A DNA stretch of 64,000 nt from Clostridiales bacterium (GCA_040776805.1 JAXGZS010000001.1:413016-477015); one strand, 5' to 3'; counted from the first letter of the stretch, positions 12,557 through 37,440 are shown. A program made the numbers and translations. Notes: a model not told the origin generated them from the sequence alone.

Positions 12557-12570
12557 GAGGAGGTGTCAAT

Positions 12571-13086: not shown

Positions 13087-13101
13087 AGTAGGAGGTATTT
13101 A

Positions 13102-13449: not shown

Positions 13450-13465
13450 GAAAGGAAGGTAGAAC

Positions 13466-14545: not shown

Positions 14546-14556
14546 GGAGGATAGAT

Positions 14557-14937
14557 ATGGCATCATTTAAAATGGGTAAGATGGTAATGAGAAGCCTGTT
14601 TGGTAAGCCGGCTACCCTCATGTATCCCGTGAAACCCGCAAAAATCACGGAAGCCACCCGTGGTCATATAACCATTGATGTGGATACCTGCATCTTCTGT
14701 GGCATCTGTCAGAAAAAATGCCCCACCAACGCCATCGTCGTTGACCGCAAAGACCGGGTTTGGAGCATTGAACGCATGAGATGCATCCAGTGCAACGCCT
14801 GCGCGGTAAACTGCCCCAAAGACTCGTTGCTGATGGAAACGACGTATACCGCTCCCAGCGCGGTAAAAATTACCGATACCTTCCAGGGGCCGCCCAAAGA
14901 GGAAAAGGCTCCGAAAGAAGCTGCGGCGGAAGCATAA
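14557..14937 (+). CDS. echF: Energy-converting hydrogenase subunit F (2x[4Fe-4S] ferredoxin, NuoI-like)
   Basis: Two CxxCxxCxxxCP motifs are present (CIFCGICQKKCP and CIQCNACAVNCP). Confidence 0.8.
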   Translation: MASFKMGKMVMRSLFGKPATLMYPVKPAKITEATRGHITIDVDTCIFCGICQKKCPTNAIVVDRKDRVWSIERMRCIQCNACAVNCPKDSLLMETTYTAPSAVKITDTFQGPPKEEKAPKEAAAEA

Positions 14938-15712: not shown

Positions 15713-16372
15713 ATGATGCACGACGTGATGAGAATTGATATCAAAGAAAATATCCATGATGAAAACGATCATATCGCAGAACATGTAAAGGAACACTTTT
15801 CCGCCCACGGTATCCTGGTGGTCAACGTGATGGGCGCACCCGGCGTCGGCAAAACAACGACGCTGAAGAATATATTCCAACACCTGCAAACAGCGAAGCC
15901 TTACGTGATTGAGGGCGATATCGAAAGCGATATCGATACCCAGGATCTGCAAAACAGGGGCATCGACACCTTTCAAATCAACACCTTCGGCGCCTGTCAT
16001 CTTGACGCGCCCTTAATCCATGAAGCCATCCATAAGATGGACTTCAACGAGGAGGGGATTCTCTTCATTGAGAACATCGGCAATCTCGTCTGCCCCGCGG
16101 AGTTTTCCATCGGGGAACATGTGAAAATGCTCATCAGCACGGTCACCGAAGGCAGTGATAAACCGTATAAATATCCTTTGGCCTTTGAAAAAGCCGACAT
16201 CATCCTGATCAATAAATGCGATTTGTTGCCTTATGTTGATTTTGATGAGGAGTTCTTTATGAAAGGCGTACGGGCCCAAAACAAAGACGTACCCGTTTTT
16301 AAAGTTTCGGGGAAAACCGGCGAGGGCTACGCGGAAGTCGCCGCCTGGCTGGAAAAACATGATCTCGACTAA
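15713..16372 (+). CDS. hypB: Hydrogenase maturation nickel metallochaperone / GTPase HypB
   Basis: The P-loop GAPGVGKTT, the ENIGNLVCPAEF motif (CPA...) and the NKCDL GTPase motif are all present. The RBS AAAGGAG lies 5 nt upstream. Confidence 0.85.
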   Translation: MMHDVMRIDIKENIHDENDHIAEHVKEHFSAHGILVVNVMGAPGVGKTTTLKNIFQHLQTAKPYVIEGDIESDIDTQDLQNRGIDTFQINTFGACHLDAPLIHEAIHKMDFNEEGILFIENIGNLVCPAEFSIGEHVKMLISTVTEGSDKPYKYPLAFEKADIILINKCDLLPYVDFDEEFFMKGVRAQNKDVPVFKVSGKTGEGYAEVAAWLEKHDLD

Positions 16373-16385
16373 CCGGAGTGAACGG

Positions 16386-20945: not shown

Positions 20946-21863
20946 ATGCGGCAAAAAATGCTTTTTCTCTTTAATATCAAAGCCGGTACTTCCGCCATTC
21001 GGCCCAAGCTCTGCGATATCATCAATATCTTCACCAAAGGCGGTTACGATGTCCTGGCTCATGCCAGTCAAGATCCCGATGATATCGAGACCTTTATCAA
21101 AGCGCGCGGTTGCGAATTCGACATTGTCGTGATCTGCGGCGGCGACGGCAGTCTCAACGACACCGTCAACGGCTTGATGGCCCTTGATAACCCGCCGCCC
21201 TTGGGTTACATCCCCACAGGAACGATGAACGACTTTGCCGCCAGCCACCGTCTCAACAACAATATGCTGGTGGCCGCCAACGATATTGTCACCGGCGAGC
21301 TGACTTATACCGACATCGGTTGTTTTAATGACCGCTATTTTTCCTATGTGGCGGCATTTGGCGCCTTTACCGACGTGGCCTACGATACGCCCCAGGCCAG
21401 TAAAAATCTTTTCGGCAAGAGCGCTTATATCTTTGAGGGCATCAAACGGCTGCCGATGCTCAGCTCTTACCACGTTAAAATCGAATGCGCCCAATTGGCC
21501 ACGGAGGGCGATTATATCTTCGGCATGGCCAGCAACGCCATGACCATCGGCGGTTTTAAAATCAATAAAAAACCGGCGATCTCCATGGACGACGGCTATT
21601 TTGAAGTGGTGCTGGTAAAAAAAGGTATCAGCGATTTCTTCAATGCCCAGATGATGCTTCACGCCCTTGTCCAGGGCGTGGAAAACAATAAATTCATTAC
21701 CTACGCCCGGACAAAAAAAGTCAAACTGAGCTTTGACGAACCTGTCAGCTGGACTTTAGATGGAGAATTCGGCGGCGATGTGCGGGAAGCCGAAATCTCG
21801 TGTATTAAAAGGAAATTGAAAATCTACGTGCCCGCCCGTCCCATTGTTCCGGTGGAAGCCTAA
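20946..21863 (+). CDS. Diacylglycerol kinase-family lipid kinase (YegS/BmrU-like)
   Basis: The VVICGGDGSLNDTVNGL (GGDGS/T) motif is present. The RBS is AGGAGGTG. Confidence 0.75.
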   Translation: MRQKMLFLFNIKAGTSAIRPKLCDIINIFTKGGYDVLAHASQDPDDIETFIKARGCEFDIVVICGGDGSLNDTVNGLMALDNPPPLGYIPTGTMNDFAASHRLNNNMLVAANDIVTGELTYTDIGCFNDRYFSYVAAFGAFTDVAYDTPQASKNLFGKSAYIFEGIKRLPMLSSYHVKIECAQLATEGDYIFGMASNAMTIGGFKINKKPAISMDDGYFEVVLVKKGISDFFNAQMMLHALVQGVENNKFITYARTKKVKLSFDEPVSWTLDGEFGGDVREAEISCIKRKLKIYVPARPIVPVEA

Positions 21864-21879
21864 AAAACCCTAAAAAACA

Positions 21880-21934
21880 GGTGTCCCTTGCCGACCAGTT
21901 CCAAAACTGTGACCAGCAAGGGACACCTTTTTTT
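21880..21934. terminator. Bidirectional terminator between the lipid kinase gene (+) and bioA (-)
   Basis: GGTGTCCCTTG...CAAGGGACACC followed by T7 on the plus strand; the reverse complement is preceded by A6. Confidence 0.6.
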
Positions 21935-23270
21935 ACAGTACTTCCTCTATGGCTGTGGCGCAGCGGTAAACGGCCTTATCCATCTCTGTTTCCGTGATGG
22001 TCAGAGGCGGATTGAAATAGAGTACGTTGCCCAAAGGGCGCAAAATCAGCCCGTGGGCCAAAGCCCTTTGGTAGATTTCGTAACCGATGCGTTTATTTTC
22101 GTCAAATCCCGCTTTCGTTTTTTTATCCGTTACCAGTTCCATGGCGTTGATCAGGCCGAGATGACGGATCTCGCCGATGTTGGGATGATCTGAGAGCCGT
22201 GTTAAAAGTTTTTTATGGAGATATTGGGCGCGGAGGGCGGCATTTTCTAAAATATGCTGCTCCCGCAAGATTTTCTGTACGGCCAGGGCCGCGGCGCAAC
22301 CCAGGGGATTGCCGCTATAGGTGTGACTGTGCATAAAAGCTTTGCCCTCTTTATAATCGGCGTAAAAGGCCTCATAAACCTTGTCCGTGGTGGCGGCGAT
22401 GGCCATGGGCAGATAGCCCCCGGTCAACCCTTTGGAAAGGCACATGATGTCCGGGGTTATGGCGGCGTGATCGCAGGCGAACATTTTGCCGGTACGGCCA
22501 AAGCCGGTGGCAATCTCGTCGGCAATCAACAACACGCCGGTCTGATCACAGAGAGCCCGTAGCTTTTTCAGGTAAAGGGGCGGGTAGATGCGCATGCCGG
22601 CGCTGCCTTGGAGGAGCGGCTCCACAATCACGGCGCAGGTGGTATCGGCGTAGCGGTCAAAGCATTTTTCAGCCTCTTCAAAGCAGTTTGCTTGGCAATT
22701 TTCGCGGTTTTGGCGGTAGGGGCAGCGGTAGCAGTCCGGGGCGGGAATCCGTACGGTATCCATGAGCAGCGGTTGGTAAATCTTTGCGTACATATCCAGG
22801 GAGCCTACGGCCAGGGCGCCGATGGTTTCACCGTGGTAGCCTTCACTTAAGCACATAAACCGGGTTCTTTTCATCTGACCCGTTTGGTATTGATATTGAA
22901 ACGCCATCTTTAAGGCGCATTCCACAGCGCTGGAGCCGCAATCGGAAAAATGAAATTTCGTCAGACCTCGGGGCACGCTTTTGCTAAGCTCTTGGCAGAG
23001 TTCAATGACGGGTTTGTGGGAAAAGTTGGCGAGAATCACGTGTTCCAATGTATCGAGCTGTTTTTTGACGGCTTCGTTGATTTCGGGATTGCAGTGCCCC
23101 AGCAGATTACACCACCAGGAACTGATGATATCGATGTACTCCTTGCCCTCCATATCGTAAAGATACACACCTTTGCCGCGGTCAATGACGATGGGGGGAA
23201 ATGATTCATAGTCTTTCATTTGGGAGCAGGGATGCCAAATATATTTTAAGTCTTTTTGGGCTAAATTCAT
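21933..23270 (-). CDS. bioA: Adenosylmethionine-8-amino-7-oxononanoate aminotransferase
   Basis: The N-terminus MNLAQKDLKYIWHPCSQMKDY... is characteristic of BioA. The 445-aa class-III aminotransferase is the last gene of the bio operon. Confidence 0.9.
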   Translation of the reverse strand: MNLAQKDLKYIWHPCSQMKDYESFPPIVIDRGKGVYLYDMEGKEYIDIISSWWCNLLGHCNPEINEAVKKQLDTLEHVILANFSHKPVIELCQELSKSVPRGLTKFHFSDCGSSAVECALKMAFQYQYQTGQMKRTRFMCLSEGYHGETIGALAVGSLDMYAKIYQPLLMDTVRIPAPDCYRCPYRQNRENCQANCFEEAEKCFDRYADTTCAVIVEPLLQGSAGMRIYPPLYLKKLRALCDQTGVLLIADEIATGFGRTGKMFACDHAAITPDIMCLSKGLTGGYLPMAIAATTDKVYEAFYADYKEGKAFMHSHTYSGNPLGCAAALAVQKILREQHILENAALRAQYLHKKLLTRLSDHPNIGEIRHLGLINAMELVTDKKTKAGFDENKRIGYEIYQRALAHGLILRPLGNVLYFNPPLTITETEMDKAVYRCATAIEEVL

Positions 23271-23947
23271 GGTCGTCTCTCCTCAAAAAGGGATCGTAGC
23301 GTGTCTTTGTCAATGGCGAGGTCGCCTGCGTCGGGAGGGATCAGGGCGAGGATAGGCAGTCCGGTGATGGCGTTAATCATCGCGGCGTTGTCTTTTTCCA
23401 TCGCCGTTTTCGTAAAGCGGTTCAGGATGACGCCGCGACAGCCGAGGTCCCTGCTCTTTAGGTATTCCGCCGTAAGCGTCACGGCGTTGATGGCGCCGAG
23501 ACCGGCGTCGGCGACGATGAGCGTATCAAGATTCAGGGCGACGATGATGTCTTCTAAAAAGATATGAGTTTTGTCGTCGTAACGAAGGGGACAGACGATA
23601 CCGCCGCTGCCCTCCACGAGAACGTATTCGTGCTTTTTCTTCACGTCCTCATAATCATGGCGAACCTTTGCCAGCTCCACGGGGTTTCCTTCCCATTTGG
23701 CGGCGAGGTGAGGGGAAACCGCATGCCGATAGAGGTAGGAAAGCAAGCTGTTTTCTTCCTGATCAAGGCTGGCGACAGCCTTGACGTAGCCCGCATCGCT
23801 TTCTTTGGTGCTGTCGGCGCCGGAGAGGGCCGCTTTGTAGTAGCCGACGTGAAAGCCGTATGCTTTCATGGCTTTGGCCAGGAGGGCGGTGACGTAGGTT
23901 TTCCCCACGTCCGTACCGGTGCCGGTGATGAAGAGTCCGTATCCCAT
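23267..23947 (-). CDS. bioD: Dethiobiotin synthetase
   Basis: The P-loop-like ITGTGTDVGKTYVT is present. 4-nt overlap with bioA. Confidence 0.85.
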   Translation of the reverse strand: MGYGLFITGTGTDVGKTYVTALLAKAMKAYGFHVGYYKAALSGADSTKESDAGYVKAVASLDQEENSLLSYLYRHAVSPHLAAKWEGNPVELAKVRHDYEDVKKKHEYVLVEGSGGIVCPLRYDDKTHIFLEDIIVALNLDTLIVADAGLGAINAVTLTAEYLKSRDLGCRGVILNRFTKTAMEKDNAAMINAITGLPILALIPPDAGDLAIDKDTLRSLFEERRP

Positions 23948-23948
23948 T

Positions 23949-24908
23949 TCATGATACCTCGTAACCCAGTTCTTTTAAGATCTCCAAATCCGCGGCGGCG
24001 GAAATGCCCTTTGTCGTCAGCATGTCCCCGGTGATGGCGGCGTTGGCGCCTCCGGAGAAACAGGCGCGGCCTTTGTCCTTTAAATTGCCGCGGCCTCCCG
24101 CCAGGCGTAAAAAAGCGTTGGGCAGCAGAAAACGGAACACGGTGACCATGCGCCGAACCTCCTCTTCGGATAGGGGCGTTACCTTTTCCAGGGGCGTTCC
24201 CGGAATGGGTTCCAATATATTGAGGGGGACGCTTTTGATTTCTAGCTCCCTTAGGGTAAGAGCCAGTTCGATGCGGTCTTCCACCGTTTCGCCCAGGCCG
24301 AAAATACCGCCGCTGCACACTTCAAGGCCATTCCTGCGCGCGGCGGAAATCGTTTTGATTTTATCGTCGTAACTGTGGCTGGTACAGATTTGGGGAAAGA
24401 AGCGGCGGGAGGTTTCCAGATTATTGTGAATTCTGGTTATCCCTGCCGCTTTTAATTGTTTCAATTGGCTTTCACTGAGGAGTCCCAAGGAAGCGCAGAG
24501 AACGAGAGACGTTTCTCTTTTGAGTGTTTCGATGCTGCGGCAGACTTTTTCCATTTCCCGCGCCGAAAGCGATTTGCCGGAGGTGACGATACCGAAATGC
24601 TTCACTCCCCCTTGCTCCTCGGCATTGGCGGCGCGGAGGAGTTCCCTTTGGCTCAAGAGGGGGTAAGCGGTGATTTCCGCGGGATAGCGGCTGGACTGGG
24701 CGCAGAACTTGCAGTCCTCACCGCAGCGGCCGCTTTTGGCATTGACAATGGCGCAGAGGTCGAAGCGGTTGCCGCAGAAACGGCGGCGAATCTCGTCGGC
24801 GGCGGCGTTTAGGGGGACAAGGGGCGCTTCATAAAGGGCAAGCGCCTCCTCTTTTGTTACGGTTTGTTCGTGGAATATTTTTTCTTTGAGTCGGGCAATC
24901 TGCTGCAT
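23949..24908 (-). CDS. bioB: Biotin synthase (radical SAM)
   Basis: The radical SAM cluster motif SGRCGEDCKFCAQS and the conserved Y..I...R residues are present. Confidence 0.9.
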   Translation of the reverse strand: MQQIARLKEKIFHEQTVTKEEALALYEAPLVPLNAAADEIRRRFCGNRFDLCAIVNAKSGRCGEDCKFCAQSSRYPAEITAYPLLSQRELLRAANAEEQGGVKHFGIVTSGKSLSAREMEKVCRSIETLKRETSLVLCASLGLLSESQLKQLKAAGITRIHNNLETSRRFFPQICTSHSYDDKIKTISAARRNGLEVCSGGIFGLGETVEDRIELALTLRELEIKSVPLNILEPIPGTPLEKVTPLSEEEVRRMVTVFRFLLPNAFLRLAGGRGNLKDKGRACFSGGANAAITGDMLTTKGISAAADLEILKELGYEVS

Positions 24909-24909
24909 G

Positions 24910-25473
24910 TCATTTCCTTTGCATTTGCTGTACGATGGGGAGCAGGCGTTTGCCGAGGCCGGCGGCGACGGCGCAGAGCAGAAGATCCCCCGGTATCGGC
25001 AGCAGAAAACAGTATAAAAGAAGCGTGCGCACGGTCATGGCGTCTCCCAAATAAAAGCGGCTGATGACCCAACAGTAAGCCATGCCCAGGGCATAAACCA
25101 CAAGTAAGCCGGCGAAACTCGCCGCAAAGAGTCTTTTCACGGAAGGGTGGGGCGACTGTTCGGTGATTCTGCCGGTAACGAAAGCGCCGAGGCAAAAACC
25201 GAGCAGGTAACCGAAGCTGGGCTGAAAAACGTAGGCGAGGCCGCCGCCGGCGGCAAAGACGGGGAATCCCGCAAGACCCAGCAAGATATAGCAGGCGACG
25301 CTAAGGGCGCCGAGTCTGGAACCGAGGAGCATCCCGGCCAGGGTTGTAAAGAGAAATTGCAGGGTGAAGGGAACCACCGGAACGGGAATGCGGAGGAACG
25401 CGCCAAGAACGATCAATGCCGTGAATAAGGCGCAGAGTATTTGATTTTTGACGGTGATGGGATGTTGATTCAT
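24910..25473 (-). CDS. bioY: Biotin transporter BioY (ECF S-component)
   Basis: The N-terminus MNQHPITVKNQILCALFTALIVLGAFLRIPVPVVPFTLQ is typical of BioY. The start is probably ATG 25473; the ORF-track 24-codon extension lacks an RBS, so the start is uncertain. Confidence 0.75.
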   Translation of the reverse strand: MNQHPITVKNQILCALFTALIVLGAFLRIPVPVVPFTLQFLFTTLAGMLLGSRLGALSVACYILLGLAGFPVFAAGGGLAYVFQPSFGYLLGFCLGAFVTGRITEQSPHPSVKRLFAASFAGLLVVYALGMAYCWVISRFYLGDAMTVRTLLLYCFLLPIPGDLLLCAVAAGLGKRLLPIVQQMQRK

Positions 25474-25486
25474 CGGCGTGCGCCCA

Positions 25487-26467
25487 TCATTTCCAGCGAA
25501 CGCTGACTTCACCACTGTCCAAGGCATTTTCATTGCCATTCTCATCGCGGACGATCAGCCGAAAGTGATCGTCGATGGCGACGGCAGTGGCGGTATGCTC
25601 TTGGTTATGGCGCGATACGGTGATTTTTTGCCCCAGGAGAAAAGAGCGTTTTCGATATTCGGACAAGAAGGCCTTCTCCGTCAGCTTCTCATAATAGGGT
25701 ATAAAATGATTGAGAATTTCCGCTGCAAGCCGGCTTTTTATGCTGTTTTTGGTTTTTGCGTCGGTAAAAAGAGAGGTGGCGACCGTTTCCAGTTCCGGGG
25801 GAAAGTTCTCTTTCGGAGGGAAAACATTGACGCCGATGCCGACGACGGCGTAATCAAGACCGCCGTTTTCCATGGCGAGCGCGGCTTCAGTGAGAATGCC
25901 GCAAACCTTTTTACCGTCGAGATAAACATCGTTGACCCATTTGATTTGGGCGTTTTTGCCGGTGACGGCCTCAATGGCGAGGGCCGCCGCCGTCGCCGCC
26001 GCTGTGGTCAGTAAAAGGGAATCGGTAACGGAATACTTTGGCCGCAACAGGATGCTCATATAGAGACCCGTGTTGGCCGGGGAAAAGAAGCCTCTGTTTC
26101 TTCTTCCTCTGCCGGCACTCTGCTCCTCCGCAATGACCACGACGCCTTCGGTTTCGCCCTGATCGGCGAGTTCTCTTACGATCGCATTGGTTGAGGTGAC
26201 CAACGGATGCTTGATGAAACGTAATTCTTTTGCCGCGCCGGTCAGCTTTTCCGCAACGGTCGCCGCGGTGAAAAGATCGGTGTCCGCGGCGAGGGCGTAA
26301 CCCTTATTGGTGACGGCGGTAATGTCATAGCCTTCGGCTTGCAGCGATTTGATGCTTTTCCATACGGCGGCTCTGGTCACATAGAGGCGGGCGGCCAGCT
26401 CTTCGCCGGAAACGAAAGAGCCTTTCTCCGCAGCCAATAACGATAAAATTTGATCCTTGAGATTCAT
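25487..26467 (-). CDS. birA: Bifunctional biotin-protein ligase / bio operon repressor BirA
   Basis: An N-terminal wHTH (ELAARLYVTRAAVWKSIKSLQAEGYDI) is joined to a BPL catalytic domain. It is the first gene of birA-bioYBDA. Confidence 0.85.
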   Translation of the reverse strand: MNLKDQILSLLAAEKGSFVSGEELAARLYVTRAAVWKSIKSLQAEGYDITAVTNKGYALAADTDLFTAATVAEKLTGAAKELRFIKHPLVTSTNAIVRELADQGETEGVVVIAEEQSAGRGRRNRGFFSPANTGLYMSILLRPKYSVTDSLLLTTAAATAAALAIEAVTGKNAQIKWVNDVYLDGKKVCGILTEAALAMENGGLDYAVVGIGVNVFPPKENFPPELETVATSLFTDAKTKNSIKSRLAAEILNHFIPYYEKLTEKAFLSEYRKRSFLLGQKITVSRHNQEHTATAVAIDDHFRLIVRDENGNENALDSGEVSVRWK

Positions 26468-26491
26468 TTTGCTTACCTCACATTGCCGCTT

Positions 26492-26546
26492 ATTATACTC
26501 TTTGCCCGGGAGATTGTCAACCGCATAACAACAAAGAGTTTACAAT
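26492..26546 (-). promoter_or_regulatory. bio operon promoter (TTGACA-17-TATAAT on the minus strand) overlapped by an imperfect palindrome ATTGTCAAC-N16-GTTTACAAT that is a likely BirA operator
   Basis: The -10 box is at 26492-26497 and the -35 at 26515-26520 (reverse complement). The half-sites are at 26513-26521 and 26538-26546 and match 8 of 9 positions as inverted repeats. The RBS GAGGT lies upstream of the birA ATG. Confidence 0.5.
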
Positions 26547-26557
26547 TCAAGTAAATA

Positions 26558-26587
26558 GCGGAGCGGGCAGTAAAATGCCCGCTCCGC
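26558..26587 (-). terminator. Terminator hairpin for the upstream minus-strand operon (GCGGAGCGGGC...GCCCGCTCCGC)
   Basis: An 11-bp stem directly after the stop at 26598, followed on the minus strand by UAUUUACUU. Confidence 0.6.
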
Positions 26588-26597
26588 GCAATAAGAT

Positions 26598-29500
26598 TTA
26601 TTTCAGCAGATCCAGGATTTCCAAATTGCTCTTGCCTCCCGGGGGACAAAGGGTCTGCTCTCTCCTGAATTCGGTGCCGCAGTTGCAGGCCACGGTACCG
26701 CTGGTTTCAAAGCTGGTGGCGAAGGGCAGGACGATCTCGGCGTTGTTTGTTTCAGCGGTATGGCGCGGCGCGATCATCAGCAGGCGTTGGCTTTTGCCGG
26801 GAATCCCCGTTTCATCACCGATTATGACGAGCGCCTTTAAATGGTCGTTTAAGAGATCGGGAGTTTTGACCCCCGCGCCCCGGTAAATTTCGGTGTTGGC
26901 CGCGCTGTGTAGCACCAAGAGCTTGGCGCCGACGGCTTTGGCCAATGCCGCCCCCTTGGCGCAAGTTTTGGCATCGGCGCTCGTTTCGGCGATGATCACC
27001 AGATCGGTCTCTTTCGAGACTTCAATTTTATCGTCCTTTGTAAAGCAGCGTACCTCTGCTTTTGCTTTTGCCATGCGGATTCCGGCTACGGGATTATCGG
27101 TATAAGGGTCTTCCCCAACGTATACGATATGTTTGGCGTGATCGATATCCGTCACCTTGGCGTCGCCCTTGACGTCGTAAGTCAGGGCGGCGGGAGAGGC
27201 GATGATCTCGGTACCCAGGGTATTTTTGGCGAAATCGACGTAAGCGGCGACTTCTTCTTTGGTGAGATTGGCGGCGAGGAAAACGCCGATTTCATTTTTA
27301 CCGTATTTCTTGACCCTTGCTTTGAGGGTCGCGGCGGCTTTCTCGTAAGTGGTTTCTTTGCCGTCCACCGTAGGTGTTTTTACCCGTTCGCCGCCGAGGA
27401 CCGTTTCATAGCCGAATTTTCCCTTTTTGCAGAGAAGGCCCGTTTCTTCCCGGGGGATCACCCGGCAGAGCTGATTGCCGAAGGTCAGCACCGTGGTTTT
27501 GCAGTTGATGGCGCATTGACCGCAGCTGCCGGCGGTGGGCTGTTCCGCCAAGGGAACGCGTTTGCCCAGAAGCTGTTTTTCTGTGAGAGCGCCGGTGGGA
27601 CAGACGTTGATGCATTGGCCGCAGGTGATGCACGTTGAATCCGCCAGGGAAATATTGAATTCCGGTTGGATGATGGTTTCAAAGCCGCGGTGAACCAGGC
27701 CCCAAACGCCTTTGCCCACCACTTCGTCGCAGACTCTGACACAGAGACCGCAGAGGATGCATTTGTCGCTGTCCCTGTCGATATAGGGGTTATGGTCGGC
27801 CATATTCCGTTTGCGCACCGTATCGCCGAAGCTGTTTTCCGCCAGTTGATATGTTTGGCCGTAGCGAATCAGTTTACATTCGTAGTAGTCGGCGCAGCCG
27901 CATTCAAGACAGCGGGAACCTTCGGCGACGGCATCTGCTTCGCTGAGACCGAGGAAGACTTCGTCAAAGGTCCGTTTTCTGCTTTCCCCGGGGAGACGCG
28001 GTCCGTTGCGGCGGGGCATTTTTTCCCGGTCGGCGAGGTCTTCGGCGGTGACGTTTTTGATTTTGGAAAGGAACGGTTCCGTATAGGGAATGATATCGCC
28101 TTTCAGGTAGCTGTCAATGATATCGGCGGCGCGGTGGGCGTCGGCAATGGCTTCTATGGCGATGCCGGGGCCGTTGTTGATGCCGTCGCCGCCGGCGAAT
28201 ACGCCCTTTTGATCCGTGAGGAAGGTGTGTTCATCGGCCTTGATCGTATGCCAGTCGGTTAAACCCACGGGGATACCGTCGGCTACGACCTGCTGGCCGA
28301 TGGCGGCGATGACCGTATCCAGCGCCAAATCTTCGAAGGCGCCCTCGATGGCCACGGGACGGCGTCTGCCGGAGGAATCCGCCTCTCCCAGTTCCATCTT
28401 TTGCAGGCGAATCCCGCTGACTCTGTCGTTTTCCGTCAGCACTTCCGTGGGGGCCACGAGGAAACGGAATTCCACGCCTTCTTCTCGGGCTTCTTTGATT
28501 TCCAGGGCTTCCGCCGGCATTTCCTTTTCCGTGCGGCGGTAGAGGACGTAGACCTTTTCCGCGCCGAGGCGGAGGGCGGTGCGGCAGGCGTCCATGGCGG
28601 TGTTGCCGCCGCCGACCACGGCGACGTTTTTGCCGAGGTACGGTTTTTCACCCCGGGCCACGGCGATCAAAAAGTCGATGCCGCCTAAGACCCCTTGGGC
28701 CTCTTCGCCTTTGCAGCGCAGCGCCGCGCTTTTCCAGGCGCCGATGGCCACATAAACGGCGTCGCTGCGATCTTTCAATTCCGCGAAGTCGATGTCTTTG
28801 CCGACTTTCGTGTTGTAGCGAAAGGTCACGCCGAGACGGGCGATATTTTCGATTTCCAAATCCAGGATTTCTTTGGGTAGTCTATATTGAGGGATGCCGT
28901 AGCGGAGCATACCGCCGCCTTTGGGCATGGCTTCGATGATTTCCACACGGTGGCCTTTTAAAGCCAAAAAGTAGGCGGCGGTGAGCCCGGCGGGACCGGC
29001 GCCGACGACGGTGATCTGCTTCCCGCTGGGGGCGGGTATTTCCTCGATAAAGCGGTCGTCACCAAAAAGATCCATATCCGCGGCGAAGGCCTTTAATTCC
29101 GCGATGGCAATGGGCTCCTCCACCAACCGGCGGCGGCAAGCCTCCTCGCAGGGATGGGGACAGATCCGTCCGATGCAGGCCGGCAAGGGGATCACTCGCT
29201 TGATGACGCGGAGCGCTTCCTTATATTTGCCGTTGGCGATGAGTCCCGTATAGGCCTGACAGTTGGTATGGCCGGGACACGCCAAGGTGCAAGGAGGGCG
29301 GCAGTCGCCTCGATGATCGGAGAAAAGCAATTCCAAGGCGACCTTGCGGGCTGTAGCGGCCCGTTTGCCCTGGGTATGGAGGACCATCTTTTCGTTGGCT
29401 GCCGTGGCGCAGGCTCGGTACAGTTTGGGGCTATTTTCGTCTTCCACCAGACAGACGCCGCAGGCGCCGTAGGTTTCTACCAGGGGATGATGACACAAAG

Positions 29501-29600
29501 TGGGGATCTCAAGGTTGTTGGCGCGGGCCACGTCGAGGATGGTTTGTCCCTTTTCAAAGGTGCATTTTTTATGATCAATGGTCATTTGCAAGGTACTCAT
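26598..29600 (-). CDS. 1000-aa iron-sulfur flavoprotein: an N-terminal [2Fe-2S] domain, a GltD-like NAD(P)H/FAD domain, 2x[4Fe-4S], and a C-terminal HydA/NuoG-like domain that lacks H-cluster motifs. This is a candidate StnC-like subunit of a Sporomusa-type Nfn transhydrogenase
   Basis: It contains GltD-type cysteines (CRPPCTLACP, CIGRICPHPCEEAC), the dinucleotide fold VVGAGPAGLTAAYFLALKG and a second fold VVGGGNTAMD. Ferredoxin motifs are CILCGLCVRVC and CITCGQCINVCP. No TSCCP/MPCxxK H-cluster signatures are seen. Confidence 0.6.
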   Translation of the reverse strand: MSTLQMTIDHKKCTFEKGQTILDVARANNLEIPTLCHHPLVETYGACGVCLVEDENSPKLYRACATAANEKMVLHTQGKRAATARKVALELLFSDHRGDCRPPCTLACPGHTNCQAYTGLIANGKYKEALRVIKRVIPLPACIGRICPHPCEEACRRRLVEEPIAIAELKAFAADMDLFGDDRFIEEIPAPSGKQITVVGAGPAGLTAAYFLALKGHRVEIIEAMPKGGGMLRYGIPQYRLPKEILDLEIENIARLGVTFRYNTKVGKDIDFAELKDRSDAVYVAIGAWKSAALRCKGEEAQGVLGGIDFLIAVARGEKPYLGKNVAVVGGGNTAMDACRTALRLGAEKVYVLYRRTEKEMPAEALEIKEAREEGVEFRFLVAPTEVLTENDRVSGIRLQKMELGEADSSGRRRPVAIEGAFEDLALDTVIAAIGQQVVADGIPVGLTDWHTIKADEHTFLTDQKGVFAGGDGINNGPGIAIEAIADAHRAADIIDSYLKGDIIPYTEPFLSKIKNVTAEDLADREKMPRRNGPRLPGESRKRTFDEVFLGLSEADAVAEGSRCLECGCADYYECKLIRYGQTYQLAENSFGDTVRKRNMADHNPYIDRDSDKCILCGLCVRVCDEVVGKGVWGLVHRGFETIIQPEFNISLADSTCITCGQCINVCPTGALTEKQLLGKRVPLAEQPTAGSCGQCAINCKTTVLTFGNQLCRVIPREETGLLCKKGKFGYETVLGGERVKTPTVDGKETTYEKAAATLKARVKKYGKNEIGVFLAANLTKEEVAAYVDFAKNTLGTEIIASPAALTYDVKGDAKVTDIDHAKHIVYVGEDPYTDNPVAGIRMAKAKAEVRCFTKDDKIEVSKETDLVIIAETSADAKTCAKGAALAKAVGAKLLVLHSAANTEIYRGAGVKTPDLLNDHLKALVIIGDETGIPGKSQRLLMIAPRHTAETNNAEIVLPFATSFETSGTVACNCGTEFRREQTLCPPGGKSNLEILDLLK

Positions 29601-29612
29601 GTGCTGCCTCCT

Positions 29613-31367
29613 TTACTCTACGATCACGGCGCCGAATTTACAAACGGCTTCGCAATTCCCGCAGTGGATACAGGTATTGGCGTCGATTACCTGAGGCTTT
29701 TTCTTTTCGCCGCTGATGGCCTCAACGGGACACTTCTTTTTACAGGCCATACAAGCCGTGCATTTTTCCGGGTCAATGCGAAAGGTTAAAAGGGGCTTGC
29801 ACTTTTTGGCGGGGCACCGATGATCTTCGATATGGGCGCGGTATTCGTCTTCAAAATGGCGAATGGTGCTCAATACGGGATTGGGGGCGCTCTGACCGAG
29901 GCCGCAGAGGGAACCGGCGATGATGTTTTCACCTAAGGTTTTCAGCGTTTCGATGTCGCCGTTTTTGCCTTCGCCGTTGACGATGCGTTCTAAAATCTCC
30001 AGCATCCGCTTGGTACCGATGCGGCAATGAACGCATTTGCCGCAGCTTTCCTCTTTGGTGAATTGGAGGAAAAACCGAGCCATATCCACCATACAGGTGG
30101 TTTCATCCATGACGATCATACCGCCGGAACCCATGATGGCGCCGACTTTGGTAATGCTCTCATAGTCTACTGCCGTATTGAGCAGGCTCTTAGGAATGCA
30201 GCCGCCGGAGGGGCCGCCCATCTGGACGCCTTTGATTTCCCGGTCGTCTTTGATGCCGCCGCCGATGCCGAAGATGATCTCGTGGATGGTCATACCCATG
30301 GGCACTTCCACCAGGCCGCCTTTTTTGACTTTGCCGGCCAGGGCGAAGACTTTGGTGCCCTTACTCTTTTCCGTGCCCAGGGCGGCGAAGGCGTCGCCTC
30401 CCTGGCGGAGAATCCAGGGTACGTTGGCATAGGTTTCCACGTTATTGATATTACTGGGTTTCTGGCGGTAGCCGCGTTGGGCGGGGAAAGGCGGTTTCAG
30501 CCGGGGCATACCTCGCTCCCCTTCCAGGGAGGCGATGAGGGCCGTTTCCTCACCGCAGACGAACGCGCCGGCGCCGGCTTTGATTTCCAGGCGGAAAGAG
30601 AAGTCGGTGCCTAAAATATGGTCGCCCAAATAGCCTTTTTCCTCTTCTTCCTGAATGGCTTTTTCCAGGCGCTTGATGGCCAGGGGATATTCGGCGCGGA
30701 CGTAAATTTTGCCCTCGGCGGCGCCGATGGCGTAAGCGCCGATCATCATGCCTTCGAGCACGCTGTGGGGATTGCTTTCCAATAAACTCCTGTCCATGAA
30801 GGCGCCGGGGTCGCCTTCGTCGGCATTGCAGATCATGTATTTGATATCGCTTTGGTTTTGCCGGGCCACGTTCCACTTAAACCAGGTGGGAAAACCGGCG
30901 CCGCCCCGGCCCCGGAGACCGGAAATTTTGATTTCTTCGATGACTTCTTCCGGTGTCAGCTCAAGGAGACAGTGCTTTAAGGCTTGAAAGCCGTCGTGTT
31001 CGATGTATTCCGCGATGTCTTCGGGGTTGATTACGCCGCAATCGCGCAAGGCGATGCGGGTCTGTTTTCCCAAAAAGGCCATATCGTCTTGGGGAACGAG
31101 GTATTCCTCAAAGGGAACTCCCTGATCCAGGTGGCTCTTTAAGAGCGCAACCGCTTTTTCCCCATCAATTTTCGCGTAAAGATAGTGCTTTTTCTTGTCG
31201 TTATCAATGACTTCGACCACGGGTTCATTGAAACAGGCGCCGATGCAGCCCACGGGTTTCAGTGTAACGTCGAGGTTTTCCTTTTCAATCAGCGCGGCGA
31301 TGGCGTCAAAGGTTTTTTGAGCGCCGGCGGCAATACCGCAGCTGCCCATACCCACTGTAATGATCAT
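29613..31367 (-). CDS. NuoF/HydB-like NADH-binding FMN flavoprotein subunit with an N-terminal thioredoxin-like domain and C-terminal 2x[4Fe-4S] (candidate StnB)
   Basis: The true start is ATG 31367, with GGAGG 9 nt upstream and an ATGA overlap with the upstream gene. The NuoF core is present. C-terminal ferredoxin motifs are CTACMACKKKCP and CIHCGNCEAVC. Confidence 0.7.
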   Translation of the reverse strand: MIITVGMGSCGIAAGAQKTFDAIAALIEKENLDVTLKPVGCIGACFNEPVVEVIDNDKKKHYLYAKIDGEKAVALLKSHLDQGVPFEEYLVPQDDMAFLGKQTRIALRDCGVINPEDIAEYIEHDGFQALKHCLLELTPEEVIEEIKISGLRGRGGAGFPTWFKWNVARQNQSDIKYMICNADEGDPGAFMDRSLLESNPHSVLEGMMIGAYAIGAAEGKIYVRAEYPLAIKRLEKAIQEEEEKGYLGDHILGTDFSFRLEIKAGAGAFVCGEETALIASLEGERGMPRLKPPFPAQRGYRQKPSNINNVETYANVPWILRQGGDAFAALGTEKSKGTKVFALAGKVKKGGLVEVPMGMTIHEIIFGIGGGIKDDREIKGVQMGGPSGGCIPKSLLNTAVDYESITKVGAIMGSGGMIVMDETTCMVDMARFFLQFTKEESCGKCVHCRIGTKRMLEILERIVNGEGKNGDIETLKTLGENIIAGSLCGLGQSAPNPVLSTIRHFEDEYRAHIEDHRCPAKKCKPLLTFRIDPEKCTACMACKKKCPVEAISGEKKKPQVIDANTCIHCGNCEAVCKFGAVIVE

Positions 31368-31894
31368 GACTGAGCGCCTCCTTCCGCTTGATAAATACCT
31401 TTGATGATCCGCCGTGCGGATTTCGCTGTCAGCGGGCCGAAAACTTCGCTGTTTTGACCCGTGCGGACCATCATCACCGGCGCCATGGAACAGCAGCCCA
31501 AACAGGCGACGCTTTCCATGGTGAAGAGGTTGTCGGCGGTGGTTTCGCCGTCTTTGATTTTGAGTTCGTCTTCCAGGGCCGCGGCGATATTTTCGCTGCC
31601 GTTCACGTGGCAGGCAGTGCCTTGGCAAAGCATGATGAGATGCTTGCCCACAGGATGCAAGCGAAACTGCGCGTAGAAGGTGACGACACCCATGATTTTG
31701 GTGACCTTAAGGCAGAGGGCGTCGCCGATGGCGTAGATGGCGTCTTTGGGCAAATAGCCGTAGATATCTTGGGTTTTCTGCAGCACGGTGATCAAGCTGC
31801 CGGGGAGGTTTTTGTATTCCGCGAGCAGCGGCTGTAATTTTGTCAGGTCGGTTTTGGGTTTTTCAGGCTTTGAACCGCAGGAACATTTGGTCAT
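31364..31894 (-). CDS. NuoE/HydC-like thioredoxin-fold [2Fe-2S] subunit (candidate StnA)
   Basis: The four NuoE-type cluster cysteines (CQGTAC and CLGCC) are present. The RBS is GGAGG. Confidence 0.7.
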   Translation of the reverse strand: MTKCSCGSKPEKPKTDLTKLQPLLAEYKNLPGSLITVLQKTQDIYGYLPKDAIYAIGDALCLKVTKIMGVVTFYAQFRLHPVGKHLIMLCQGTACHVNGSENIAAALEDELKIKDGETTADNLFTMESVACLGCCSMAPVMMVRTGQNSEVFGPLTAKSARRIIKGIYQAEGGAQS

Positions 31895-32699
31895 TCTTCT
31901 TTTCCTCCTGTATCCCCTTTTCTTCCAGTTCTAAGAGGCGCGTAACGCGTTGCCGGGCTGTCTTTAGAAAAGTTCTTTCATCGGGATAGCGCCTTTGATC
32001 CGCTATCAGTTCCATGGTATACGGTAGGTTGCTGTCGATCAAGTATGGCGTGACTTTTTGAGCAAAGTTTATGGTGCCGTCAAAGGGTAAGCGGTGCTGA
32101 TCCGCTGTGCCGTCGTTATCGGAAAGGTGCAGCGCCGTTAAAAGATGCCGGTATTTTTGCAGCAAATAAAATTGATCTTTGAGATTGGCATGGGAGGTAT
32201 CGAAACAAAAACCCAGTTCTTTCACGCCGGGAAAGGCGTGATAGACGTATTCCAGATAATCTGCCCGCCAGGTGTTTTCCAAAGAAAGGGTCATGCGGTT
32301 GTCCTCGGCGTAGGGCAGCAGATATTCGATGCTGCGGAGCAGGTCAACGTTGGGATCGGGAACGTCGCCTCTTTCGCACAGGTGCATTACGAGGTTGGCG
32401 TAACCGAGATCGGCCATTTCCTCCATGGTCTTGCAAATGGGTTTCAAGTAGCCTTCCCGCACAGAAATACTGGGATTCCAAATATCGTTGTCGTTCATTG
32501 CCGCCATATGAAAATTAAAAACGGTCAGTTCGCAATCGAGGGCAAAGCGCAGCATCTCCCGGCGGGGGATGGGCCAATCGCCCTCTTCGTCTTCCCACCA
32601 GAGCATGATGCCGTCAAAACCGGCGTCTTTGATCAGCTCAAGGCGTTTGCGATAATCGGTGAAATATCCGTACCAGGCGAAGATTCCTGTCTTTTTCAT
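31863..32699 (-). CDS. Sugar phosphate isomerase/epimerase (xylose-isomerase-like TIM barrel)
   Basis: AP-endonuclease-2 / TIM-barrel family features are present. The start is ATG 32699, overlapping the EamA stop in an ATGA. The 3' end overlaps the following gene by 32 nt. Confidence 0.65.
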   Translation of the reverse strand: MKKTGIFAWYGYFTDYRKRLELIKDAGFDGIMLWWEDEEGDWPIPRREMLRFALDCELTVFNFHMAAMNDNDIWNPSISVREGYLKPICKTMEEMADLGYANLVMHLCERGDVPDPNVDLLRSIEYLLPYAEDNRMTLSLENTWRADYLEYVYHAFPGVKELGFCFDTSHANLKDQFYLLQKYRHLLTALHLSDNDGTADQHRLPFDGTINFAQKVTPYLIDSNLPYTMELIADQRRYPDERTFLKTARQRVTRLLELEEKGIQEEKKNDQMFLRFKA

Positions 32700-33598
32700 G
32701 GTGTCAAGACCCCGTTTTTCTGTTTTTTGCTGTTGCTCCATTCAAGCCAAAGAACGGATAAGAAGATGACGCTGCCACCAAGGAAAAGCCGGGTGGTAAA
32801 GGGTTCCAAGCCGAGGAACACGGAGAAGGCGGCGCCGAAGAGGGACTCGAAAGAGAGCAGAATGGCGCTTTTTGCCGTCGGTGTGCGCCGCTGTCCGTAG
32901 GTTTGCAGAAAAAGACAGAGGGCCGAGGGGAACAGCGCCAAATAGACCAGAGCAAGCATCCCGTTGCTCCATTGGATCTGGTGGGTTTGACCCGTTTCAA
33001 AAAGAAAGAAATAAACGCTGGAAAGTACGCCTACGGTGAGCAATTGTAAAAAAGTCAGGTGAAAGGTGTTTTTGCCGTCGGTGGTATTACCCAGGTAAGC
33101 GATATGACAGGCGAAAGCGAAGGCGCAGATCAAAGTCAGCAGATCCCCGATGCGGAAGTGGATGCCGCCGTTGGACCAGTTGAGTACCGTGATCCCCAAA
33201 AAGCAGGCGAAGACGGCGATATAGACGCGCCCGGAAATTTTCTCTTTGAAAAAAAGCCGGGCGATGAAAGGAACCATCAATAAATTGGTGGCTGTTAGCA
33301 ACGCGTTGCTGGAAACTTCAATGGTCTGCAGACCCAAGGTCTGAAAGAGGAAGCCGAAAAAGTAGAAACTGCCGGCAATGAAACCGGTTTTGATTTCCGC
33401 TAAGCTGATGTGTTTCATTTTCCTGTTGATGATCAGCAGGAGGGCGGCGGCGCCCAGAAGAAAGCGGATCACGTTGAGGAGACCCGGGGGAAACCCGCAT
33501 TGGAGGGCATAGTCGACGCCGATGAAACCGCTGCCCCAGATCAGGGCGGTGAGGAGAAGGGCGGCTTCTCCTTTGTAAGAGTGTTTTGGCATGATCAA
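32696..33598 (-). CDS. EamA/DMT-superfamily transporter (10 TM helices)
   Basis: Two EamA repeats are present (...LIWGSGFIGV..., ...LFGAAFSVFLGLEPF...). Confidence 0.8.
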   Translation of the reverse strand: MIMPKHSYKGEAALLLTALIWGSGFIGVDYALQCGFPPGLLNVIRFLLGAAALLLIINRKMKHISLAEIKTGFIAGSFYFFGFLFQTLGLQTIEVSSNALLTATNLLMVPFIARLFFKEKISGRVYIAVFACFLGITVLNWSNGGIHFRIGDLLTLICAFAFACHIAYLGNTTDGKNTFHLTFLQLLTVGVLSSVYFFLFETGQTHQIQWSNGMLALVYLALFPSALCLFLQTYGQRRTPTAKSAILLSFESLFGAAFSVFLGLEPFTTRLFLGGSVIFLSVLWLEWSNSKKQKNGVLTP

Positions 33599-33721
33599 TT
33601 CCTTTAAGTAGGTACTTATTGTTAAATTTCATCATAACACAATTTTTTCTGAATCGCAACGCGTGAATCTTTACAAACAAAGAAGGATGGGGTATGATGA
33701 AAACCTAAGAAAGGTATGATC

Positions 33722-35176
33722 ATGATGAAGCAAGAATTGAATTATACATTACTTTGCGATTACTACGAATTGACCATGGCCAACGGCTATTTCGAAAACG
33801 GCTGGAAAGACAAGATCACCTATTTTGACGTATTCTTCCGGAAGATTCCCGACCGCGGCGGTTTCGCCATCGCCGCCGGGCTGGAACAGATCGTCGACTA
33901 TATCGAAAACCTTGCTTTCGATGAGGAGGACATCGCCTTTTTGCGCAAAAAAGGCGTATTTGACGAGGCGTTTCTCAGCTATTTGCGGGATTTTTCCTTC
34001 CACGGTGATCTCTACGCCGTTCCGGAAGGAACGCCGATTTTTCCCAATGAGCCGATCCTGACGGTGCGGGCGCCGGCGCCGGAGGCGCAATTCATCGAAA
34101 CCTTTATCCTTTTGACCCTGAACCATCAAAGCCTGATCGCCACCAAGGCCAACCGTATCTGTAGGGCGGCGGCGGGCCGGGCGGTGACGGAATTCGGTTC
34201 CCGCCGCGCCCACGGGGCCAGCGGCGCGATTTTAGGGGCTCGGGCCGCCTGCATCGGCGGTTGCGTGGGTACGGCCTGCACCATTTCGGAATTGCTCTAC
34301 GGCACCCCCGCCGGCGGCACCATGGCCCATTCCTGGGTGCAGATGTTCGATTCTGAAATAGAAGCCTTTCGCTCCTATTGCAGCATTTACCCGAAAAACC
34401 CCTGTCTTTTGGTGGATACCTATAATGTCTTAAAGAGCGGCATTCCCAACGCCCTGAAGGTCTTCAAGGAATTAGGCATCAAAGAATGCGCGGTTCGTAT
34501 TGATTCCGGCGACATTACCTATTTGACGAAACACGCCCGGAAAATGCTGGATGACGCGGGCTATCCCCACTGTAAGATCGTGATTTCCAATGCTTTGGAC
34601 GAATATATCATCCGCGATCTGTTGTTACAAGGCGCCCAAGTCGACGCTTTCGGCGTCGGCGAACGGCTGATTACCGCCCGCAGCGAGCCGGTTTTCGGCT
34701 GTGTGTACAAACTCTCCGCCATTGAGGACGCCGCCGGTCAGGTGATCCCTAAAATCAAAGTCAGCGAAAACGCCGGTAAGATCACGAATCCCCACTTTAA
34801 AAAGGTTTGGCGCATTTTTGACAACGCCACCGGCAAAGCCCAGGCGGATCTGGTCACCGTTTACGATGAAACCATCGACGTGGATCAGCCTTTGACGATC
34901 TTTGACCCCGAACATCCCTGGAAAAAGAAGACTTTCACTAATTTTTCCGTCAAAGAGCTGCTGATTCCCATCTTTAAGGACGGCGTCTGCGTGATGGAGC
35001 GGAAACCAACGGTGCAGGAGATCCGATCCTATAGCGCCGGACAAATCCACTGCTTATGGGATGAAATGAAGCGTTTTGAACATCCTCATCTTTACTATGT
35101 GGATCTTTCCGCAAAACTTTGGCAGATCAAAAACGAGCTCATCAAAGAGAACTTCGGTTCTTTTCAACAATTCTGA
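33722..35176 (+). CDS. pncB: Nicotinate phosphoribosyltransferase
   Basis: The NAPRTase N-terminus MKQELNYTLLCDYYELTMANGYF is present in a 480-aa protein. The start was taken at ATG 33722, 7 nt after AAAGG; in-frame ATGs also occur at 33716 and 33725. Confidence 0.85.
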   Translation: MMKQELNYTLLCDYYELTMANGYFENGWKDKITYFDVFFRKIPDRGGFAIAAGLEQIVDYIENLAFDEEDIAFLRKKGVFDEAFLSYLRDFSFHGDLYAVPEGTPIFPNEPILTVRAPAPEAQFIETFILLTLNHQSLIATKANRICRAAAGRAVTEFGSRRAHGASGAILGARAACIGGCVGTACTISELLYGTPAGGTMAHSWVQMFDSEIEAFRSYCSIYPKNPCLLVDTYNVLKSGIPNALKVFKELGIKECAVRIDSGDITYLTKHARKMLDDAGYPHCKIVISNALDEYIIRDLLLQGAQVDAFGVGERLITARSEPVFGCVYKLSAIEDAAGQVIPKIKVSENAGKITNPHFKKVWRIFDNATGKAQADLVTVYDETIDVDQPLTIFDPEHPWKKKTFTNFSVKELLIPIFKDGVCVMERKPTVQEIRSYSAGQIHCLWDEMKRFEHPHLYYVDLSAKLWQIKNELIKENFGSFQQF

Positions 35177-37257: not shown

Positions 37258-37440
37258 ATAAAGTTAAGTGCGGAGAAATCGGGTTTGAATCCCGAACGGT
37301 CGCGCCACTGTGAAACGGAGCTTACTTTAGACGCCAGTCAGCCACTGCCATAAGCGGGAAGGCAAAGTATAGCGATGATGTGAAGTCAGGATATTCCGAA
37401 CTTAATGCTGTACTCGCAGCTTCCGCGTAAGGAGTGATGC
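37258..37440 (+). promoter_or_regulatory. Cobalamin (B12) riboswitch aptamer
   Basis: Conserved blocks appear in the canonical order: GGGTTTGAATCCC, CGCGCCACTGTGAAACGGAGC, CAGCCACTGCC, GCGGGAAGGC, and GATGATGTGAAGTCAGGATATTCCGAAC (a B12-box variant). A sigma70-like promoter (TTGCCG-17-TAGAAT) lies at about 37214-37245. Confidence 0.6.

Follow-up and report, generated by a model that had tools for sequence, protein, structure and literature searches.

The window analysed here is a stretch of 64,000 nucleotides (nt) from a Clostridiales bacterium (GCA_040776805.1, JAXGZS010000001.1:413016-477015). Between positions 26598 and 33598 it carries five consecutive, closely packed open reading frames (ORFs) on the minus strand (Table 1), which were located by ORF calling and whose junctions were read directly from the sequence. 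We are highly confident that the three downstream genes (26598-31894) encode a flavin-based electron-bifurcating transhydrogenase of the StnABC/NfnABC type (BfuABC family), and that the two upstream genes, encoding an EamA-family transporter and a triosephosphate isomerase (TIM)-barrel protein, are a separate two-gene unit.

Gene layout and transcription signals

The five genes leave almost no space between them. ATGA overlaps join the eamA stop to the TIM start (32699) and stnA to stnB, the TIM and stnA genes overlap by 32 nt (31863-31894), and a 12-nt spacer lies between the stnB stop and the stnC ATG; the original prediction had described the same five genes and the same junctions, and each of them was found again on direct reading. 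Ribosome-binding sites (AGGAGG) precede stnA, stnB and stnC. Some starts required a choice: for eamA, the ATG at 33592, which follows AAAGGA, is likelier than the TTG at 33598 (which would give 300 amino acids, aa); the TIM-barrel gene could be read as a longer ORF, to 32741; and the TTG at 31628 proposed for stnB by the ORF finder is an upstream extension, so the start was taken at 31367.

Table 1. Genes and predicted transcription signals of the five-gene locus (positions in the window)
Feature	Position	Strand	Basis and remarks
Promoter-like site (predicted)	33631..33659	-	TTGCGA-17-TG-TATGAT, extended -10, upstream of eamA; consensus scan
eamA, EamA-family (drug/metabolite transporter, DMT) membrane transporter, 298 aa	32696..33592	-	Pfam EamA 3.7e-32, two repeats
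Xylose-isomerase-like (AP_endonuc_2) TIM-barrel protein, 278 aa	31863..32699	-	Pfam 7e-17; start MKK
stnA (= nfnC, Bfu nomenclature), NuoE-like, 176 aa	31364..31894	-	Pfam 2Fe-2S_thioredx 1.4e-46
stnB (= nfnB), NuoF-like FMN/NAD(H) subunit, 584 aa	29613..31367	-	Pfam Complex1_51K 1.5e-48, NADH_4Fe-4S 9e-34, Fer4
stnC (= nfnA), GltD-NuoG fusion, 1000 aa	26598..29600	-	Pfam, PDB sequence search, AlphaFold, motifs
Intrinsic terminator hairpin	26558..26587	-	12 bp stem, 10 G-C pairs, T-rich tail; 11 nt past stnC stop

The promoter-like site is inside a 123-nt divergent intergenic region that eamA shares with a nicotinate phosphoribosyltransferase (NAPRTase, pncB) gene. A consensus scan found no convincing minus-strand terminator or promoter inside the five-gene cluster, including a promoter of stnA's own within the TIM gene, and the operon contains no riboswitch or other RNA element (the Rfam gathering matches fall elsewhere in the window). 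Since internal signals are missing and a strong terminator follows stnC, the genes appear as a tightly packed single unit with a clear end. The next gene, birA, has a perfect TTGACA-17-TATAAT promoter at 26520-26492, past that terminator, so the operon that follows is a separate one. The five genes probably share one promoter and one terminator and are likely to be co-transcribed; as stnABC has no separate upstream region, its transcription probably starts at the eamA promoter.

The stnABC genes encode an Stn/Nfn-type transhydrogenase

All three downstream proteins find the same solved structures when compared by sequence with the PDB. StnC matches 9bov (1.9e-266) and 8oh5 (4.1e-247) over residues 1-800, StnB matches 8oh5_B (2.6e-270, with residues 2-584 of 584 aligned) and 9bov_B (8.2e-267), and StnA matches 9bov_C (6.7e-55) and 8oh5_A (6.5e-54). 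For each subunit these two structures rank first, Thermococcus sibiricus NfnABC comes next, and HydABC, NAD-linked formate dehydrogenases and complex I are far behind.

The features that define the family were taken from two publications (Kremp et al., PMC7483475; Kumar et al., PMC10482914) and then checked on the window proteins. According to these studies, StnC is a NuoG-like protein into which a GltD-like module has been inserted, creating an HxxxCxxxCxxxCP and a CxxCxCx5C motif, and it holds one [2Fe-2S] and six [4Fe-4S] clusters. The Pfam matches of the window StnC fit this plan: Fer2_4 (residues 3-77), Fer4_20 (100-176), a GltD-like Pyr_redox_2 (195-488), two [4Fe-4S] motifs (Fer4_Nqo3/Fer4_7, 605-673) and a weak, partial match to the molybdopterin oxidoreductase family (PF00384, 752-883). 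The protein thus runs from a [2Fe-2S] domain through a GltD/NfnL-like module for flavin adenine dinucleotide (FAD) and NADPH, set within a NuoG-like scaffold, and through two [4Fe-4S] clusters to a reduced FdhF/NuoG-like domain with one more [4Fe-4S] cluster. The original prediction had given this order, and it stands as far as the two [4Fe-4S] motifs; the last domain, then described as HydA/NuoG-like, is FdhF/NuoG-like and not HydA-like.

Across 58 aligned homologues, the ligands and binding motifs of StnC do not vary. This holds for the [2Fe-2S] ligands (C36/47/50/64), for HxxxCxxxCxxxCP (H96, C100, C104, C108, P109), for C147/151/155, for CxxCxCx5C (C564/567/569/575), for the two ferredoxin-type clusters (C614-624 and C657-667) and for the FdhF-type cluster (C693/696/700/724), so that all seven Fe-S sites (one [2Fe-2S] and six [4Fe-4S] motifs) are kept. 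It holds as well for K170 and R240, the latter equivalent to R239 of Sporomusa ovata; Lys170 ligates the cluster proximal to the FAD and is strictly conserved in StnC (it is Glu in NfnB), and Arg239 lies near N5 of the FAD (PMC10482914). The GxGxxG motif for FAD and the GxGxxA motif for NADPH, as defined in PMC7483475, are present as GAGPAG (200-205) and GGGNTA (330-335), again without variation. When StnC is set beside the characterised S. ovata protein, a comparison that the original prediction had proposed, the ligands and motifs of the latter are conserved.

The two partner subunits are equally complete. StnB has an N-terminal thioredoxin-like domain, a GRGGAG loop for flavin mononucleotide (FMN), an N3-type [4Fe-4S] site (C442/445/448/488), a His/Cys site of the Zn type (residues ~511-523) and a C-terminal ferredoxin domain with two [4Fe-4S] clusters (C536-546 and C566-576). 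StnA is a thioredoxin-like [2Fe-2S] domain with C90, C95, C131 and C135 (C-x4-C-x35-C-x3-C). Pfam and PDB searches found no small subunit of the NfnA/NfnS type (similar to ferredoxin-NADP+ reductase) in the cluster; just the NfnB/NfnL-like module is there, as a domain of StnC. The AlphaFold model of StnC (predicted local distance difference test, pLDDT, 89; predicted TM-score, pTM, 0.88) superposes with query-normalised TM-scores of 0.93 on 9bov_A, 0.92 on 8oh5_C and 0.86 on 9n5u_A (T. sibiricus NfnA). In every homologous locus examined (L001-L008, L019) the order stnA-stnB-stnC is kept, with partners of 176 and 582-584 aa.

Membership of the Stn/Nfn-Bfu family is therefore established to the limit of what sequence and predicted structure can provide, and the Stn-type complex of NuoE-like, NuoF-like and large subunits named in the original prediction is borne out. 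This assigns a specific function, ferredoxin-coupled transhydrogenation between NADH and NADPH, which is characterised both biochemically and structurally, to three genes that public pipelines annotate as "FAD-dependent oxidoreductase", "formate dehydrogenase major subunit" or "NAD(P)-binding protein".

A short C-terminal domain in StnC

StnC's C-terminal domain is NuoG/FdhF-like (a molybdopterin oxidoreductase fold), cofactor-less and catalytically dead. In S. ovata the FdhF-like domain (residues 683-1172) is likewise catalytically inactive, has a molybdopterin fold and mediates tetramer formation (PMC10482914). The two differ in size: the domain has ~310 residues in the window StnC and about 490 aa in S. 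ovata. It is thus ~170 residues shorter than in the solved bacterial enzymes, and an alignment with long-form homologues shows that an internal segment (~70-90 residues, helical in the long forms) and the C-terminal ~110 residues are missing; the FdhF-type [4Fe-4S] motif is kept despite the shortening, but a full-length domain of the kind that forms the tetramer interface is not present.

A full-length FdhF/NuoG-like domain is not a defining feature of the family, because the domain is partial in T. sibiricus NfnA and in NsoC, both of which are active (PMC12018979). The T. sibiricus enzyme, for example, is without the long helix, and also without the helix bundle, of the Fdh-like domain and works as a monomeric heterotrimer (PMC12018979). 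Homologues of StnC with 894-1241 aa were already listed in Table 1 of PMC7483475, and our homologue search places the large subunits in size classes of about 700, 927-967, 1000-1004, 1115-1150 and 1175-1210 aa. Two clades have the 1000-aa class, one close to the window protein (74-85% identity) and a second more distant (52-54% identity). By analogy with the archaeal T. sibiricus enzyme, the window complex may exist as a free heterotrimer and not assemble into a tetramer of trimers, and the bacterial 1000-aa class could be used to test whether the Fdh-like domain is needed just for oligomerisation.

The EamA-TIM pair

The AlphaFold model of the TIM-barrel protein is a (beta/alpha)8 barrel (pLDDT 95), and in its alignment the His/Glu/Asp columns that usually form the metal site in the xylose-isomerase-like superfamily are conserved. 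More specific matches were not obtained: the best PDB matches by fold reach a TM-score of just ~0.73 (UlaE, ketose-3-epimerase/tagatose-3-epimerase-like proteins and xylose isomerases), and those by sequence are weak. The single NCBIfam match is to CbiR, a cobamide-remodelling phosphodiesterase, and is well under the threshold (30.8 bits against a cutoff of 105). Because all these matches are generic or sub-threshold, the "sugar-phosphate isomerase" of the original prediction is a label for the superfamily and not for a function.

The eamA and TIM genes overlap by 4 nt, are translationally coupled and diverge from the NAPRTase gene (31863-35176 with pncB included), and this arrangement is conserved in several related lineages of Clostridia (L009-L015). 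A 57%-identical paralogue (P0172), probably in the same genome, is found outside the window. The pair is an older, separate two-gene unit that goes with the divergent NAPRTase gene and is not part of the Stn enzyme.

Genomic neighbourhood and the origin of the five-gene arrangement

The five-gene order is kept in three loci (L001, L002 and L016), whose StnC proteins are 74-91% identical to that of the window. These three share the whole neighbourhood as well (spoVA, NAPRTase, the five genes, birA-bioYBDA, a diacylglycerol-kinase-family gene, recognised by Pfam DAGK_cat and called DAGK here, and hypEDCF), so that they represent a single evolutionary event. Elsewhere the two modules occur apart. 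At the same syntenic position in at least three related lineages (L009-L015), the NAPRTase gene and the EamA-TIM pair, with TIM homologues of 56-66% identity, are found and stn genes are not: in L009-L011 and L014-L015 convergent DAGK-hyp genes start 41 nt after the TIM gene, and in L012/L013 a MarR gene follows it. Conversely, every more distant locus examined (L005-L008, L019 and L020) has stnABC without EamA or TIM. For example, in L005 and L006, which belong to the more distant short-form clade, stnABC directly follows genes for a 2-oxoacid:ferredoxin oxidoreductase (POR_N, TPP_enzyme_C, POR and a small ferredoxin), a sensible functional neighbour because it supplies reduced ferredoxin; in L007/L008 and L019 stnABC stands alone. 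As a negative control for the linkage we scanned metagenomes with the TIM alignment: stnA, stnB or stnC was found within 10 kb of the TIM homologue in none of 80 loci, all but one of which have homologues at 29-37% identity.

The difference between the two kinds of loci is a 10.1-kb block (21832-31977) that comprises stnABC and birA-bioY-bioB-bioD-bioA. It is found in the window and in L001, L002 and L016 and is absent from the syntenic loci L009-L011 and L014-L015; in blastn comparisons of the window with L009 and L014, homology ends at ~31977 (the 3' end of the TIM gene) and restarts at ~21832 (the 3' end of the DAGK gene). The outgroup favours insertion here over loss in the sister lineages, but neither base composition nor boundary repeats (see below) speak for it, so the preference is tentative. 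The end of the TIM protein changes accordingly: the last ten residues, …NDQMFLRFKA in the stn-carrying lineage, are unrelated to the …FPFSF tail of stn-less relatives, and the last ~10 codons lie in the 5' end of stnA, in a different reading frame. As the TIM tail is encoded by the 5' end of stnA, the 32-nt overlap is explained as read-through into the adjoining module.

Since each module exists without the other, they are independent, and their combination is best explained as a lineage-specific juxtaposition. Two explanations would give it more meaning. In the first, which we regard as unlikely, the locus represents a bacterial short form of Stn/NfnABC that kept all seven large-subunit clusters, lost the tetramerisation elements and was transcriptionally captured by the EamA/TIM unit beside the NAD-salvage gene pncB; if this were true, NADPH/ferredoxin balancing would be co-regulated with export or salvage of a sugar derivative in a gut/anaerobe lineage. 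In the second, which is quite improbable, the five genes serve one pathway, the TIM and EamA proteins making or exporting a metabolite whose synthesis needs the balance of NADPH (or ferredoxin) that Stn sets, and the operon has been selected for co-expression. The 4-nt and 32-nt overlaps, the lack of a minus-strand terminator or predicted promoter from eamA to stnC and the persistence of the arrangement in three other loci would all agree with one pathway; but those loci count as one event, the modules separate in all the other loci described above, the metagenome scan gave no linkage, and the longer overlap looks like read-through, the TIM tail being unconserved.

That stnABC sits behind the eamA promoter is thus an accident of genome arrangement, and functional coupling is without support. 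The single operon of the original prediction holds as a contiguous unit, probably with one promoter and one terminator (consensus scan), and fails as a conserved functional unit (locus comparison); the odd functional combination that it had pointed out is not supported as a coupling, and its apparent novelty dissolves once related genomes are compared.

Several other features were observed around the five genes. The biotin operon birA-bioY-bioB-bioD-bioA (21933-26520, minus strand) begins directly past the stnC terminator, at the perfect consensus sigma-70 promoter given above. An inverted repeat at 21873-21934 (19 nt, 95% complementary), between the convergent bioA and DAGK genes, is likely a bidirectional terminator. 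On the other side, just after the spoVA genes, there is a cobalamin riboswitch aptamer on the plus strand (37277-37393; Rfam RF00174, 56 bits, model positions 49-166 of 189); no convincing plus-strand gene is seen in the ~1.4 kb past it, and it is apparently orphan or partial.

Points against a transhydrogenase in an independent module, and other catalytic functions

Some observations weigh against our interpretation of stnABC as a transhydrogenase in an independent module that may have been inserted here. The stn block carries no compositional signal of transfer that we could find (G+C content at third codon positions, GC3, of 0.67-0.69, against 0.59-0.69 in neighbouring genes), and repeats that fit its boundaries were sought and none were found. 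(A 24-nt, 88%-identical repeat pair at 22121/31994 was considered and set aside as uninformative: its right copy is inside bioA, ~290 nt from the homology boundary, and the pair misfits the stn-less junction.) Deletion of the FdhF-like domain in S. ovata left no active complex (PMC10482914), so the trimmed domain of the window protein could in principle impair assembly; this concern is countered by the conservation of the short form across two clades and by the confident model. The activity, direction and oligomeric state of the window enzyme are those we infer from characterised homologues. Finally, some homologues bear names taken from other reactions, such as Nso (NADPH:sulfur) or Sfr (NADPH:Fe(III)), e.g. 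"NADPH-Fe(3+) oxidoreductase subunit beta", which leaves a small chance that the physiological acceptor is another one.

These names lead to another explanation, that the complex is not a ferredoxin-coupled transhydrogenase but uses NADPH to reduce something else, either elemental sulfur/polysulfide (like NsoABC) or Fe(III) (like SfrAB). NsoC is 40.6% identical to StnC (PMC7483475). However, the nearest characterised relatives are, by a wide margin, two bacterial transhydrogenases, and the full bifurcating StnAB core is present, including the ferredoxin-reducing dicluster domain of StnB and the [2Fe-2S] domain of StnA; the authors of PMC7483475 make the case that Nso, too, is probably an Stn. 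We therefore consider another acceptor very improbable.

The NuoE/NuoF-like partners (the same module as in HydABC and NAD-dependent formate dehydrogenases) and homologues annotated "formate dehydrogenase major subunit" or "molybdopterin-dependent oxidoreductase" might suggest that the large subunit carries the catalytic site of an electron-bifurcating [FeFe]-hydrogenase, HydABC, or else of a formate dehydrogenase linked to NAD. The sequence effectively refutes both, the formate dehydrogenase at the level of domains and model scores: StnC has no Fe_hyd_lg_C match in Pfam and no H-cluster motifs (TSCCP and MPCxxK are absent, as already noted in the original prediction, and so are CCP and ExMxCxxGCxxG), NCBIfam FeFe_hydrog_A6 matches only its ferredoxin-like part (residues 564-678) and scores 175 bits where the cutoff is 765, the Fdh-alpha model TIGR01591 gives 54 bits against a cutoff of 666, the molybdopterin-like domain of ~310 residues is without its C-terminal part and any Molydop_binding match, and S. 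ovata Stn gave no formate oxidation (PMC7483475).

Proposed mechanism and physiological role

Enzyme activity, cofactor content and electron path of Stn/Nfn enzymes have been described (PMC7483475, PMC10482914, PMC11829005, PMC12018979), and the steps proposed here for the window enzyme are carried over from its solved homologues. NADPH would bind to the GltD-like module of StnC and reduce the FAD there, and electrons would then move singly down the Fe-S chain of StnC to the FMN/[4Fe-4S]/[2Fe-2S] site that StnB and StnA make up together. At the FMN site the path would split: one branch would deliver a hydride to NAD+, and the other would send low-potential electrons to ferredoxin via the mobile [2Fe-2S] domain of StnA and the two C-terminal [4Fe-4S] clusters of StnB. 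In vivo the enzyme of a fermentative, ferredoxin-based anaerobe most likely runs in reverse (NADH + reduced ferredoxin + 2 NADP+ -> 2 NADPH), making NADPH for biosynthesis; NfnABC of Caldicellulosiruptor saccharolyticus uses the pools of NADH and reduced ferredoxin to make biosynthetic NADPH (PMC11829005), and by analogy the same NADPH-making direction is likely in this host.

The window also contains, 12 kb from the stn genes, a six-gene cluster (9636-14937, plus strand) for a membrane [NiFe]-hydrogenase of the Ech type (group 4, energy-converting). Its genes encode Proton_antipo_M, NADHdh, Oxidored_q6, Complex1_30kDa and Complex1_49kDa/NiFeSe proteins and a protein with two [4Fe-4S] clusters, and hyp maturation genes follow. 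The hydrogenase together with its maturation genes suggests that the organism runs a ferredoxin-based energy metabolism. For metabolic reconstruction it is useful to know that this uncultured lineage of Clostridia has an Stn enzyme as well as an Ech-type hydrogenase.

One of the maturation genes, hypF (16359-18721, plus strand), is apparently disrupted: it is split into two ORFs of 338 aa and 419 aa, where relatives have a single gene of ~776 aa. In a tblastn comparison the reading frame changes near 17265-17290, and positions 17420-17422 hold an in-frame TAG. Either hypF is a pseudogene or the assembly is in error here.

Comparison with known systems

The family to which the window enzyme belongs balances NADH, NADPH and ferredoxin in anaerobes and is known and structurally characterised; the enzyme is an ordinary member of it, in a short size class. 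The nearest named genome is the metagenome-assembled genome "Peptococcaceae bacterium UBA7702" (Clostridia in GTDB), with a StnC 91% identical to that of the window.

S. ovata StnABC (PDB 8oh5/8oh9; PMC7483475, PMC10482914) has the same three subunits in the same gene order. Its StnB, like that of the window, is 584 aa long and aligns with it end to end, and the two enzymes have in common all Fe-S ligand motifs, K170, C114, R239 (S. ovata numbering) and the FAD, NADPH and FMN motifs. They differ in the large subunit (1172 aa in S. ovata, 1000 aa in the window, where the counterpart of S. ovata residues ~880-960 and the final ~110 residues are missing), and the domain that forms the tetramer in S. 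ovata is the one trimmed in the window. They differ also in context: the window host is an uncultured, Peptococcaceae-labelled Clostridia bacterium that, unlike S. ovata, is not a known acetogen, and its stnABC genes abut an unrelated gene pair with no upstream intergenic region of their own.

C. saccharolyticus NfnABC (Bfu type 1; PDB 9bov/9bp5; PMC11829005) is the top match for the large and small subunits of the window, and its large subunit has the same seven Fe-S sites. This organism is a fermentative non-acetogen in which the production of NADPH from NADH and reduced ferredoxin is attributed to the enzyme, the role we propose here as well; its enzyme, however, is thermophilic and tetrameric, with a large subunit of 1178 aa and a full Fdh-like domain.

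T. sibiricus NfnABC (PDB 9n5u/9n5v; PMC12018979) and Thermococcus litoralis NsoABC resemble the window enzyme in that the large subunit is short (963 aa) and its NuoG/Fdh-like domain is partial, and the former is active as a single heterotrimer. The TM-score between T. sibiricus NfnA and the StnC model rises from the query-normalised value given above to 0.90 when normalised by the target. The T. sibiricus enzyme is archaeal and less similar in sequence (E 7e-172); it is without the large-subunit cluster A4, and Zn replaces the B5 [2Fe-2S] cluster, whereas the window StnC keeps all seven cysteine motifs.

Classical NfnAB/NfnSL (PDB 4ylf, 5jca) catalyses the same overall reaction as Stn, and its NfnB/NfnL subunit is homologous to the GltD-like module of the window StnC (E 2.4e-89 and 1.7e-85). 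The classical enzyme has two subunits and no NuoE/NuoF module, its bifurcating flavin is the FAD in NfnL, and its proximal cluster is ligated by Glu where Stn has Lys170.

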